Of a stretch of DNA of 64,000 nucleotides, positions 11,421 to 13,524 are shown piece after piece. Source of the DNA: Acidobacteriota bacterium (GTDB lineage: Bacteria; Acidobacteriota; UBA6911; RPQK01; JAJDTT01); the NCBI GenBank assembly GCA_965116695.1, contig OZ220706.1:770415-834414 (forward strand). Reading direction: 5' to 3'. The first letter of the stretch is position 1; each line of letters starts with the position of its first letter. A model generated the notes under the pieces. It was not told the origin of the DNA. It saw only the letters and a list, made by a program, of their open reading frames with translations, and ran no database searches. The position numbers and the translations under genes are program-made.

Positions 11421-11460
11421 TCTAAGTTAACTCGTCCTGCATGGGAGGAGGAGTCACTCT
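11421..11460 (+). promoter_or_regulatory. Conserved ~40-nt leader element, copy A (CTAAGTTAACTCGTCCTGCATGGGAGGAGGAGTCACTCT): imperfect palindrome ACTCGTCCTGC/GGAGGAGGAGT
   Basis: Near-identical copy (3-4 mismatches) at 13277-13316. Both lie ~100-130 nt upstream of an ORF starting with a similar TM helix. The arms can pair 9/11, sequestering a GGAGG-rich tract. Confidence 0.55.
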
Positions 11461-11558
11461 GAATTGCATTCTACTCAATCTCGACTCTTTCTGGTTGCAG
11501 ACAGGACACACGCCAGGGTGATTACGGTGTCACGCTGGAACGAAAGGAGAATAGCCGT

Positions 11559-12413
11559 ATGAAAGTCAACCGCTGGATAATTGGTGCGATCATCGCCACC
11601 ATCTCTCTCCTCGTCTTTTTCTGGTGGGATAGGCGCGAACCGATTCTGCAGGAGCCTAAGCCTGTCGTGGCCGAAGATGAAAGGCCGCATCGGAAACACC
11701 GTCACCAGACCCACCAACGTTCCGTGAAGGATGATTGCGCGTCCTGCCCGGACCTCCCTGAACCGGATGTAGAAAATCAAAAGCGTGCGGGGATCACGGC
11801 CGAGCAGTTCGTCGAAATGCGCCGTGAAGCTCAATACGAAGCCGCTGAACGGATCGGAGGCTGTTACGGGTTGTTGTTGAAGGCGGGTCTGGACGGCAAT
11901 CCGAATCCAAATACGGACCACTTGGATGGATGTGGAGGGAAGACTCCGCTTCACATCGCCAACACGCCGGAGATGGTTCGGGATCTGATTGAGGCCGGGG
12001 CCGATGTTAACGCCCAAGACGAATTCGGGGACACGCCCCTGCACAAGCAGGCCGCAATGTCGGAACCAACCGCGGAGACTCTGGAGATGGTCAGCATGCT
12101 TCTCGATGCAGGAGCCGATGGCCAGATCAAGAACCAGACTGAAGAAGCTCCGTGGAAAACGGCCCGGCTCATGGCCTCTACGGAGATCTCGCATATGACC
12201 GTTCAGGAGGCACTGGAAAAGGACGCATCGGCGCACGGAATGTCTGTGGAAGCCTTCCTGGACGCAAATCCCGGGCGAAAAGCCCGCTTGGACAGAATCC
12301 TCGAGGGGTACCTGTACGAAGCGAAGATCAAGAGATTGCTACTCAGATCTGCGATTGATCCGGAACGCCTGGAGATTCTGGACGAACAACGACGAGAAAT
12401 ACTAGGAGATTGA
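11559..12413 (+). CDS. Membrane-anchored ankyrin-repeat protein (N-terminal TM helix, at least 2 ANK repeats)
   Basis: 284 aa. Strong SD AAAGGAGAA. TM helix IIGAIIATISLLVFFWW. ANK consensus GKTPLHIANTPEMVRDLIEAGADVNAQDEFGDTPLHKQAA. Lower GC than the genome. Confidence 0.75.
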   Translation: MKVNRWIIGAIIATISLLVFFWWDRREPILQEPKPVVAEDERPHRKHRHQTHQRSVKDDCASCPDLPEPDVENQKRAGITAEQFVEMRREAQYEAAERIGGCYGLLLKAGLDGNPNPNTDHLDGCGGKTPLHIANTPEMVRDLIEAGADVNAQDEFGDTPLHKQAAMSEPTAETLEMVSMLLDAGADGQIKNQTEEAPWKTARLMASTEISHMTVQEALEKDASAHGMSVEAFLDANPGRKARLDRILEGYLYEAKIKRLLLRSAIDPERLEILDEQRREILGD

Positions 12414-12416
12414 TTG

Positions 12417-12680
12417 ATGTTGAAATTGAAAGCTTGTCTGATCCTGATCCTGTTGACGACGGTCACTCCCGTCCAGGAGGTGGAGGCTCGGATCTGCTGC
12501 TTGCCCGACCCGACATGTTGGTTCAAGTGTTGGAGGCAGAATCAATTCTGCCAGCACGCCGCCGAAACCGACTACCAGCTCTGCATCAAGAACGGCGAAG
12601 AGGCAGCGTGCAGATTCGTCTACAGATTGGAGAAGGGAATATGTGCCATCCAATACAACCGCTGCTGGGAACGCTGCTGA
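12417..12680 (+). CDS. Secreted cysteine-rich peptide, paralog 1 (signal peptide + 10-Cys mature domain, core 8-Cys C-x3-C-x6-C-x10-C-x8-C-x10-C-x6-C-x3-C)
   Basis: SD AGGAG 8 nt upstream of ATG. Cleavable-type signal MLKLKACLILILLTTVTPVQEVEA. Mature domain ~63 aa. Confidence 0.7.
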   Translation: MLKLKACLILILLTTVTPVQEVEARICCLPDPTCWFKCWRQNQFCQHAAETDYQLCIKNGEEAACRFVYRLEKGICAIQYNRCWERC

Positions 12681-12703
12681 CCCAATTGCAAAGGAGAACA
12701 AAA

Positions 12704-12982
12704 GTGAAAATATTTTTCTCGATATGTTTGATTCTGGCCGCCGTACTGGTGCCGTCGCAGATGACACTCAGGGCAGACGGGGTTATCGAAATCCCGTGGG
12801 GCTATTTCTGCCGAAGGAATTGTGATGATGATCAACAAAACTGCCACAATCGTGCCGGAGAGTTTCTAAGAAGATGCGAACGGTATTCGGAGGAGGCGCA
12901 GTGCTACGAGCACTACCAGTTCAAGATCCGGATGTGCAACCGGGAGTTTGAACGCTGCATGCGAATCTGCGGCACCGGCTAG
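12704..12982 (+). CDS. Secreted cysteine-rich peptide, paralog 2 (8-Cys, identical spacing)
   Basis: GTG start 5 nt after the AAGGAGAA SD. Signal KIFFSICLILAAVLVP. Mature CRRNC...CHNRAGEFLRRCERYSEEAQCYEHYQFKIRMCNREFERCMRIC aligns with paralog 3. Confidence 0.65.
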   Translation: MKIFFSICLILAAVLVPSQMTLRADGVIEIPWGYFCRRNCDDDQQNCHNRAGEFLRRCERYSEEAQCYEHYQFKIRMCNREFERCMRICGTG

Positions 12983-13276
12983 GAGACCCGGAACATCCCA
13001 AAAGGGGCCGGTGGAAATATCGGCCCCTCCCCCACTCGCCCCATCAATTGGGGCTTCCCGGCAGTCCCGTCCCGAGGAAAGCCGGAGACGTGGTTCTCTA
13101 CAGGCAGGACCTATGAGAACCAAGAATGCCGTGGGGAGTCCAATGGATGATTGGGGACAACGGTTCGAACTGGCAGGAAGTGGCTGAGATTCAATGCAGT
13201 GTCCACAGGTCTCGACTCGTCGTGCCAGGTTCTACCGCTTCGGAGTCGAGCCTGTCGAATGGGGCTACATTCGACA

Positions 13277-13316
13277 GGCTCTAAATCAACTCGTCCTGCG
13301 TAGGAGGAGGAGTCAA
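13277..13316 (+). promoter_or_regulatory. Conserved ~40-nt leader element, copy B (CTAAATCAACTCGTCCTGCGTAGGAGGAGGAGTCAATCT), preceded by a perfect 11-bp hairpin (13244-13273)
   Basis: Direct sequence match to copy A at 11421-11460. Followed ~75 nt downstream by the SD AAAGGAGG and a short TM ORF. Confidence 0.55.
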
Positions 13317-13392
13317 TCTTGCGAAATTATACTCGTCCGGCTTCAGGCTTGTCTGCGCAGGACTTCCGTCCTAACGAAAGGAGGTCCGATCC

Positions 13393-13524
13393 ATGACAGT
13401 AATGCATTGGAAACCGGGAATGATTCTCGTCATTCCCCTGCTGCTGATTCTCTGGTGGTGTTGGGAGGACACCGATCCGGCACGCGTGAGTGATCCTCCA
13501 CAACAACCCCTAACGGGGCAGTAG
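13393..13524 (+). CDS. Small (43-aa) single-TM ORF, a truncated paralog of the N-terminus of the ankyrin protein (MTVMHWKPGMILVIPLLLILWWCWEDTDP...)
   Basis: Below the ORF-track size cutoff. SD AAAGGAGG 8 nt upstream. The TM helix plus WW(C)W-acidic motif mirrors LLVFFWWDRREP of the 11559 gene. May be a remnant or a small membrane protein. Confidence 0.4.
   Translation: MTVMHWKPGMILVIPLLLILWWCWEDTDPARVSDPPQQPLTGQ

Follow-up and report, generated by a model that had tools for sequence, protein, structure and literature searches.

A 64,000-nucleotide (nt) stretch of DNA from an Acidobacteriota bacterium (GenBank contig OZ220706.1, positions 770,415 to 834,414; hereafter the window) contains two neighboring gene units, A and B, in which the gene of an ankyrin-repeat protein, truncated in unit B, is followed by genes of secreted eight-cysteine peptides. 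A copy of a 40-nt repeat precedes each unit. This repeat is the core of a larger conserved RNA control element, which an initial annotation of the sequence had seen only in part: the element consists of a short hairpin (H1), an invariant block and a long hairpin (P2). Covariation among related leaders supports H1 and P2 as structured RNA, and the two hairpins show opposite strand bias. We tentatively prefer a model in which each copy may be a portable sense/antisense RNA control module, read on both strands and built like the left end of IS200; the preference is given because this model accounts for both strand biases, and the case for it still falls somewhat short of even.

Copy A of the repeat occupies positions 11421-11460 (TCTAAGTTAACTCGTCCTGCATGGGAGGAGGAGTCACTCT) and copy B positions 13280-13319 (TCTAAATCAACTCGTCCTGCGTAGGAGGAGGAGTCAATCT). 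In an ungapped comparison with an offset of 1859 nt, 35 of the 40 positions are identical; the initial annotation was right about the existence of the repeat, but counted 36 identical positions and placed copy B at 13277-13316, i.e. 3 nt too low. The block is composed, in copy A, of a linker (CUCUAAGUUA), an invariant part (ACUCGUCCUG), a variable part of 6-7 nt and a purine tract (GGAGGAGGAGUC). The similarity is not limited to this short motif, as the annotation had allowed it might be. According to a repeat finder, ungapped similarity spans 73 nt including H1 (11388-11460 versus 13247-13319, 74%), and the same search reports a perfect 14-nt inverted repeat at 13248-13281. The 28-nt core AACTCGTCCTGC-N-T-R-GGAGGAGGAGTCA occurs at only two sites in the 64-kb window when up to three mismatches are permitted, with no match across 100 shuffles. 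A covariance model scored at all positions of the window detects no third copy of the element; its next-best matches are the reverse strand of the two known hairpins.

A pattern scan of 185,579 species genomes finds the element in eight Acidobacteriota genomes, with one exact match in each (seven chromosomes or contigs of 5.2-6.3 Mb and one 3.2-Mb contig). One exact match per multi-megabase genome indicates a locus-specific motif and not a genome-wide repeat, the latter being the other outcome that the annotation had considered. Each genome contains one or two copies of the element. No match to the strict pattern is present in the JGI metagenomes; a loose pattern gives 12 matches there, which we attribute to chance, as they lie in GAG-rich coding sequence and lack H1. 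The element is also absent from the loci of two more distant ankyrin orthologs (L005 and L009).

The copies can be classified into five types. Type A (window copy A and the related loci L003, L004 and L017) stands before ankyrin-A and two peptide genes, and type B (window copy B and 11 further distinct leaders) before ankyrin-B and one peptide gene. Type C, which is the same in L014 and L021, precedes the gene of an unrelated secreted protein of 287 amino acids (aa); the proteins of this unit have no match in Pfam. Type E (L024:4839-4923) belongs to a third ankyrin/two-peptide operon, and type D (L024:3765-3848) has no convincing downstream open reading frame (ORF); a palindrome, GGCTGAAGCTTCAGCC (3918-3934), but no ORF, is found downstream of the D copy. 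Every copy is oriented as the plus-strand genes, and the distance from the invariant ACTCGTCCTG to the start codon that follows it on the same strand is 104-129 nt in types A, B, C and E. Conservation peaks in the element itself: among eight B-type loci, a 76-nt core is 96% identical, compared with 85-87% for the ankyrin gene and 77% for the 120-nt upstream flank. Between types, CTCT-R-A, AACTCGTCCTG and AGGA-R-GAG are unchanged, while nearly all of their surroundings differ.

The module is mobile. The C-type module and its promoter are located inside an insertion of about 3.3 kb (L021:8741-12100) between VanZ and PEGA genes, which is bounded by 15-bp terminal inverted repeats (GTAGTGTCCTAATTT / AAATTAGGACACTAC), encodes an IS1-family transposase and is flanked by a target duplication of about 10 bp (direct repeat CGGCGGCGGG). 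Its passengers are the C-type leader, the gene of the 287-aa secreted protein and two small ORFs; two related genomes (L022 and L023, near 8735-8753) possess the empty insertion site. Types D and E reside on a 52-kb contig (L024) together with TraG-like and VirB11-like genes, and this cassette is probably part of a conjugative element. The presence of the element on a transposon and on a conjugation-type contig implies that the leader travels with its cargo as a unit.

H1 is the upstream part of the element. In copy A (11389-11422), a 14-bp stem formed by GAGACGGCAGAGTG and CACCCTGCCGCCTC encloses a 6-nt loop; its two A.C mismatches on the plus strand correspond to G.U on the minus strand. In copy B (13248-13281), the 14-bp stem GAGCCTGTCGAATG / CATTCGACAGGCTC is perfect (z = -5.2). 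The sequence of H1 varies by type, yet the pairing is kept: the 5' and 3' arms are GAGACGGCAGAGUG and CACCCUGCCGCCUC in type A, GAGCCUGUCGAAUG and CAUUCGACAGGCUC in type B, GAGACUGCCGAGUG and CACCCGGCAGCCUC in type C, GAGCCCGCCGGGUG and CACCCGACAGGCUC in type D, and GAACUCGCCGAGUG and CACUCGGCGAGUUC in type E. In the alignment of ten sequences used for this analysis, changes on both sides are seen at 8 of the 14 pairs, and the covariation score is reached by none of 500 shuffles. If the 3' partner is shifted by one to three columns, pairing drops from 93.5% to 42-48% (H1 and the palindrome described below counted together). One B-type copy (L004:2872-2905) carries the loop TAGCCC, the reverse complement of the GGGCTA of all other B copies; as stem and flanks are unchanged, either the loop or the whole palindrome of H1 was inverted.

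The imperfect palindrome on which the initial annotation had focused fares differently. Its arms ACTCGTCCTGC and GGAGGAGGAGT do pair at 9 of 11 positions, as claimed, and the remaining two are G.G mismatches. Across the five types, 7 of the 9 pairs of ACUCGUCCUGC / GGAGGAGGAGU are constant, and where the closing pair varies, the outcome is mostly a non-pair or a one-sided change (two U.G, one U-A and three non-pairs). The palindrome thus shows no covariation as an RNA hairpin; its "loop" covaries instead with a site about 50 nt downstream. We replace this interpretation by H1 and P2, the parts that have evolutionary support.

P2 pairs a 5' arm made of GUCCUG, the "loop" of the palindrome and the purine tract with a 3' arm, which is a pyrimidine-rich stretch ending in CAGGAC. 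The 6-7 variable nucleotides after GUCCUG are complementary, type by type, to the bases before CAGGAC: CGUAGG:UCUGCG in type B, GGAAUGGAGG:CCUCCAUUCC in type C, UGUCAG:CUGACA in type D, CGUGCG:CGGGUG in type E, and CAU:AUG in the A type of L004. P2 of copy A (11434-11507, plus strand) contains GUCCUG:CAGGAC and AGGAGGAGUC:GACUCUUUCU, with two plus-strand G.U pairs. P2 of copy B (13293-13363, plus strand) has a 15-bp outer helix (GUCCUGCGUAGGAGG / CUU.UCUGCGCAGGAC) and an inner helix (GGAGUC / GGCUUC). Pairing in the outer helix amounts to 97.8% across 12 B-type leaders, where 13 one-sided changes are accommodated as G.U pairs. For 13 of 16 leaders, P2 is the predicted fold of lowest energy, and it dominates the predicted ensembles; relative to shuffled sequences, its energy z-score is -1.35 in type A, -2.9 in type B and -4.9 in type C. 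A leader bound by CsrA/RsmA would be expected to display GGA motifs in hairpin loops, with one of them overlapping the Shine-Dalgarno sequence; such motifs are abundant in the leaders (GGAGGAGGAG, CAGGAC, AAGGAG), but they are located in stems of the favored fold.

The strand on which the pairing is preserved differs between the two hairpins. Read on the plus strand, 131 of the 140 cells of the H1 alignment pair; all nine non-pairs are A.C or C.A, and no G.U occurs. Read on the minus strand, all 140 cells pair, because the nine non-pairs become G.U. These nine cells fall at five positions and hence represent at least five events. In agreement with this, RNAalifold assigns the 85-nt block -33.1 kcal/mol and 20 pairs on the plus strand, versus -39.2 kcal/mol and 24 pairs, none of them broken in H1, on the minus strand; the minus-strand fold includes three extra pairs that vary only through wobble. 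For P2 the situation is the reverse: wobble pairs take the form G.U on the plus strand, the strand that is also favored, by 3-10 kcal/mol, in the duplex energies of seven of eight sequences. H1 and P2 therefore show opposite strand bias, and H1 displays the pattern of selection on a minus-strand structure.

Promoter-like sites are found on both strands. On the minus strand, all five types have a TAnnnT box, whose distance to the CTC tract that follows is constant at 13-17 nt. Transcription starting some 7 nt past this box would begin where the between-type similarity ends, and H1 lies at the other end of the conserved block. In the window, the box is represented in copy A by TAGAAT (11468-11473, minus strand), a -10-like candidate antisense promoter by consensus match only, and in copy B by TATAAT (13326-13331, minus strand), which together with CAGACA 18 nt upstream gives 10/12 matches and is the sole sigma-70-like site in a scan of 11100-14100. 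To the right of the D copy, the minus strand reads TTGACA-16-AATACT. On the plus strand, the C type has TTGACA-17-AATAAT (11/12 matches), ending 14 nt before H1; the D type has TTGAAT-18-TAAGCT upstream of H1, which was read by eye and is below the scan threshold. No convincing sigma-70 promoter is found directly upstream of H1 in types A, B and E. A conserved AT-rich box (CTCRCGCATTTTTCTGCTTGCTCGTTATTT...) at 11299-11338 on the plus strand is a candidate promoter region upstream of unit A, although hexamers cannot be clearly assigned. The box is kept 3' of the Lar_N or peptide 2 gene in many relatives (e.g. L004:2555-2592) and is missing from the B unit of the window.

Several other candidates for functional sites were rejected. 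By reading of the sequence, an ECF-sigma promoter inside the block would rest on GGAAC 23 nt from CGTC, a combination present in type A only, and a sigma-54 promoter inside the block lacks GG-N10-GC. A long-range helix between variable linker bases and the spacer before AUG is contradicted in L007 and L015 by a U-to-C change that lacks compensation. Unit B has further ACTCGTCC copies (13215 and 13331), considered as repeated protein sites, but these are poorly conserved among B types.

According to the sense/antisense model, the 5' leader of the operon, transcribed from the plus strand, would fold into P2. In this fold, the invariant GUCCUG and the Shine-Dalgarno (SD)-like GGAGGAGGAG would pair with the pyrimidine-rich segment ending in CAGGAC; that segment resembles an anti-Shine-Dalgarno sequence. 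The minus strand would give rise to an antisense RNA of about 75-80 nt, which would start at the TAnnnT box in the apical part of P2, continue through CUCCUCCUCC, complementary to the purine tract, and through the invariant block, and stop at H1. H1 would have a second role as an insulating hairpin that bounds the module upstream. By pairing with the 5' arm of P2, the antisense RNA would release the pyrimidine arm, which could then close over the true ribosome-binding site (AAGGAG, 9 nt, AUG); alternatively, the duplex might be cut. By either route, the ankyrin/Cys-peptide operon would be translated less. If the 5' block is made unavailable in silico, the predicted accessibility of the Shine-Dalgarno sequence falls in 8 of 10 leaders and that of the AUG in 9 of 10, in these predictions because the pyrimidine arm, once released, pairs with the region of the ribosome-binding site.

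A wider version of the model, which we regard as rather doubtful in its entirety, views the element as a portable expression cassette for secreted-protein genes in which each strand encodes one selected helix: H1 for the antisense RNA and P2 for the mRNA leader. The invariant block would then be the RNA-RNA interface, and type-specific loops would prevent cross-reaction between paralogous units (A and B in the window, and likewise D and E of the plasmid-like contig), while the whole would move among chromosome, transposon and conjugative element with its cargo.

A number of observations weigh against reading the element on both strands. The strand bias of H1 is founded on about five independent events, and P2 is weak in type A (z = -1.35). 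All sequences come from one narrow clade, so that the P2 statistics within type B reflect few events. The minus-strand promoter candidates have weak -35 hexamers, and the TAnnnT box overlaps the plus-strand motif UACUC, which is possibly conserved for pairing instead. No U tract follows H1: the adjoining sequence is CUAAAUCAAC on the plus strand and GACUCCGAAG on the minus strand. As the gene-end hairpins of this organism also lack a T tract, the canonical terminator rule may not apply here. Finally, the accessibility trend fails in 2 of 10 leaders, and the Shine-Dalgarno sequence of B types is already mostly paired without an antisense RNA.

What has to be weighed most seriously against the sense/antisense model is a cis-regulatory leader that acts on the sense strand only, an explanation we consider possible but less than probable. 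Here, H1, the invariant block and P2 would all be part of the mRNA 5' untranslated region (UTR), and a protein, a small molecule, temperature or a trans-acting small RNA would shift the balance between a local hairpin (ACUCGUCCUG:GGAGGAGGAGU) and P2, thereby exposing or hiding the ribosome-binding site. The fixed orientation and distance to the start codons, the covariation and plus-strand G.U pairs of P2, and the near-consensus plus-strand promoter just 5' of H1 in type C are all in accordance with such a leader; so is the predominance of the P2 state in predicted ensembles, the local hairpin being 0.7-8 kcal/mol higher. The anti-SD/anti-anti-SD platform of thiM offers a model for the switch (PMC2018614). 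Yet a sense-only leader leaves unexplained why the H1 mismatches on the plus strand are all A.C and never G.U, and why the block folds better on the minus strand. Moreover, there are no aptamer-like conserved junction or loop nucleotides (the H1 loop varies freely and even inverts), and the D copy has no downstream gene. A related proposal, which we deem quite improbable, is coupling through a leader peptide: the purine tract would be the SD of a short upstream ORF (TTG 13319..TGA 13396 in copy B; TTG 11464..TGA 11562 in copy A) whose stop overlaps the main start (ATGA) and whose translation would open the main ribosome-binding site. There is a precedent for such coupling in tap, which serves repA in plasmid R1. 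In all 12 B-type leaders the frame is open over 25 codons and has no indels, with 7 nt between GGAGGAGGAG and the UUG, and an equivalent ORF of 32 codons exists at window copy A. However, variable sites number 11, 11 and 7 at codon positions 1, 2 and 3, a distribution that does not suggest coding constraint. L003 and L017 have lost the TTG in their A-type leaders, type C has only the two-codon AUG GCC UGA, and the encoded peptides are unrelated between types. We accordingly dismissed the upstream ORF as a conserved peptide, given that neither its start codon nor a coding pattern is conserved.

Two further explanations place the function in the DNA. The initial annotation had offered a dyad operator as one option, in which the imperfect dyad ACTCNTCCT-N7-AGGANGAGT would be bound by a dimeric transcription factor at the promoter of each unit. 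Both half-sites are invariant in all five types around a variable 7-nt spacer, and in B types a -10-like TATACT about 15 nt downstream would place the dyad near -40. Nonetheless, we think an operator unlikely: the half-site centers are 16 bp apart and presumably on opposite faces of the helix, which would be atypical for a dimeric regulator; the spacer covaries with the downstream segment; and the adjacent H1 changes by compensatory substitutions, as is not expected of a protein site. In type C, the dyad would lie at about +50 to +72 from the best promoter, and no regulator gene accompanies the module in its transposon or plasmid copies. Least probable of all, in our view, is a site for a mobile element or recombinase, with H1 acting as a single-stranded DNA hairpin like an integron attC or an IS200/IS605 end; this would explain the duplication and movement of the cassette. 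The module is indeed found on a transposon and on a contig with conjugation-type genes, tandem arrays occur, the H1 loop is inverted in one copy, and the one-strand wobble bias would also fit G.T pairs in folded DNA. But the transposon is bounded by separate 15-bp terminal inverted repeats and a target duplication, H1 being about 80 nt inside them, and no GTTRRRY / RYYYAAC core pair is seen flanking H1 when the sequence is read for it. The element is positioned upstream of genes and not at duplication junctions, the homology of the units reaching more than 150 nt further upstream, and there is no HUH or integrase gene nearby.

Ankyrin-A (11559-12413, plus strand; Pfam Ank, E = 7.5e-12) encodes a 284-aa protein with an N-terminal transmembrane (TM) helix. 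About 30 full-length orthologs of the ankyrin protein are known, all of them from Acidobacteriota metagenome assemblies. It is followed by the genes of the secreted 8-Cys peptides 1 (12417-12680, 87 aa) and 2 (12704-12982, 92 aa, GTG start), whereas peptide 3 (13592-13846, 84 aa) is the ortholog of the peptide encoded after ankyrin-B in relatives; all three genes are on the plus strand. The three peptides are paralogous and share a mirror-symmetric cysteine spacing, C-x3-C-x6-C-x10-C-x8-C-x10-C-x6-C-x3-C. They match no Pfam family, and a profile search yields only 21 clusters among 1.84 billion representatives. The peptide genes always adjoin the gene of a TM-anchored ankyrin protein.

Unit B opens with a 43-aa ORF (13393-13524, plus strand), which is the 5' end of an ankyrin-B gene. 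The paralogy of the two ORF starts that the initial annotation had proposed is not significant in direct comparison (BLASTP E = 0.27), but it becomes apparent through relatives: the stub is 85% identical at the nucleotide level to the start of full-length B-type ankyrin genes. Compared with the full B unit of L013, window positions 13401-13522 align with nucleotides 9-130, 13525-13559 with 220-254 and 13567-13849 with 844-1125, at 85-91% identity in the three segments. The segmented alignment indicates two internal deletions that removed most of ankyrin-B. On this evidence the 43-aa ORF is an ankyrin-B remnant and not a separate gene family, and the leader, the first 43 codons and the peptide gene were retained. 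A stub of identical type is present in L017, L018 and L019. The tandem duplication of leader, first gene and Cys-peptide gene that the annotation had suggested gains support from the unit content of relatives, which possess unit B alone (L006, L007), units A and B together (L003, L017) or a pair of full B units (L008). At about 41%, the identity of ankyrin-A and ankyrin-B is low and points to an old event; the alignments hence support an origin of the whole unit by old tandem duplication. In L003 (9476-9829), a 117-aa TnpB fragment (Cas12f1-like_TNB) and two small ORFs lie between peptide 3 and the FG-GAP gene; this insertion is not present in the window.

The two units of the window are arranged in the same order. 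Unit A is preceded by the end of a Lar_N-family gene at 11224. Between P2 and the ankyrin-A start, a further hairpin, P3 (CCAGGGUGAUUACGGUGUCACGCUGG; 11513-11538, plus strand), which is specific to type A but also present in type E, stands directly 5' of the ribosome-binding site. This site is composed of AACGAAAGGAG, 9 nt and ATG (11539-11561, plus strand). The annotation had correctly noted AACGAAAGGAG before both units (11539-11549 and 13373-13383), with a distance to ATG of 8 nt in place of the actual 9 nt. In unit B, a feature with four invariant pairs occupies positions 13369-13382 of the plus strand. GC-rich hairpins conclude both units on the plus strand, at 13004-13027 after peptide 2, where the hairpin looks like a terminator, and at 13864-13887 after peptide 3. 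They share the motif AAGGGGCCGG...CCGGCCCC and lack a T tract; a scan of 11100-14100 for terminator-like sites returned none on either strand. The terminators of this organism may be of a hairpin-only kind, and the two hairpins would fit two separate transcription units. In B units, a short ORF is found upstream of H1, at 13113-13187 in the window and about 150-110 nt upstream of H1 in L006. Its ribosome-binding site is strong in relatives (AAGGAGGAACCATG, peptide MRIKSWMFGGINLNL) and weaker in the window (MRTKNAVGSPMDDWGQRFELAGSG), and neither the sequence nor the length of the peptide is conserved. Downstream of unit B follows the gene of a 974-aa FG-GAP protein.

The element is a compact, covariation-supported RNA candidate that is absent from Rfam and located before an equally unknown operon of ankyrin and 8-cysteine-peptide genes. 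Acidobacteriota are a dominant and largely uncultured soil phylum, and, to our knowledge, almost nothing is known about post-transcriptional control in it. If the two-strand reading is true, the element is a clean mobile regulatory cassette with parts selected on opposite strands, and it provides an orthogonal sense/antisense pair ready for use; should the sense reading alone be true, it is a new structured leader. The narrow distribution limits the general impact under either reading. A literature search on the operon found nothing. With Rfam 15 at gathering thresholds, only a tRNA matches in the whole window, namely tRNA-Leu (CAG) at 32827-32914, which is also the sole ARAGORN match. A permissive Rfam search of four regions gives sub-threshold matches only, which differ between types, with none at E <= 1 for types D and E. 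The element therefore matches no Rfam family and represents a known kind of control, i.e. that of a leader at the RNA level, in a new form.

Among known systems, countertranscript pairs such as CopA/CopT-tap-repA of R1 and RNA-OUT/RNA-IN of IS10 come to mind. They resemble the candidate antisense RNA described here in that a small two-hairpin RNA lies opposite the leader of the controlled gene, in that loop sequences differ between paralogous units, which would prevent cross-reaction, and possibly in the coupled leader ORF of B types. In contrast, all types of our element have the same invariant stems on either side of the loops, which is unusual for such systems. The R1162 antisense RNA (RF00043) is matched on the plus strand of type C only, below threshold (24.3 versus 55 bits). 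Chlorobi-1 (RF01696) has a similar two-hairpin layout, and GAGC...GU..AAUGGGG...GCUC of its second hairpin is also found in copy B (23.1 bits, E = 0.0026). This score is far below the gathering score of 50, however, and types A, C, D and E do not match; since AAUGGGG is found in the stem and loop of B types only, the resemblance is not family-wide. The thiM riboswitch, which senses thiamine pyrophosphate, controls expression through an anti-SD/anti-anti-SD platform (PMC2018614). As in thiM, purine and pyrimidine segments of our leaders could pair in two exclusive ways that leave the SD free or closed. The invariant nucleotides of the element are located in helix arms and linker, and the loops are variable; hence platform-like alternative pairing is present, but nothing resembling the conserved core of an aptamer was found, and none of the riboswitch families in Rfam matches.

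The closest published architecture, by analogy, is the left end of IS200, where a bidirectional terminator hairpin is combined with an SD-sequestering stem-loop in the 5' UTR and the 90-nt antisense RNA art200 (PMC4513863). The two share no sequence similarity, and the genes behind our element encode membrane and secreted proteins, with no transposase under control. For IS200, transcription is reported to begin at about nt 40, past the terminator (PMC4513863), whereas the best plus-strand promoter of type C is upstream of H1, so that H1 would be within the transcript; the antisense RNA and the termination at H1 are, in our case, predictions. The order of the parts is nevertheless the same. Both have a perfect or near-perfect short hairpin at the upstream edge, followed by a long 5'-UTR stem-loop that involves the ribosome-binding region. 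In both, an antisense RNA complementary to the 5' UTR, here a candidate of about 80-90 nt, would end at the first hairpin, and the module travels with a mobile gene unit.

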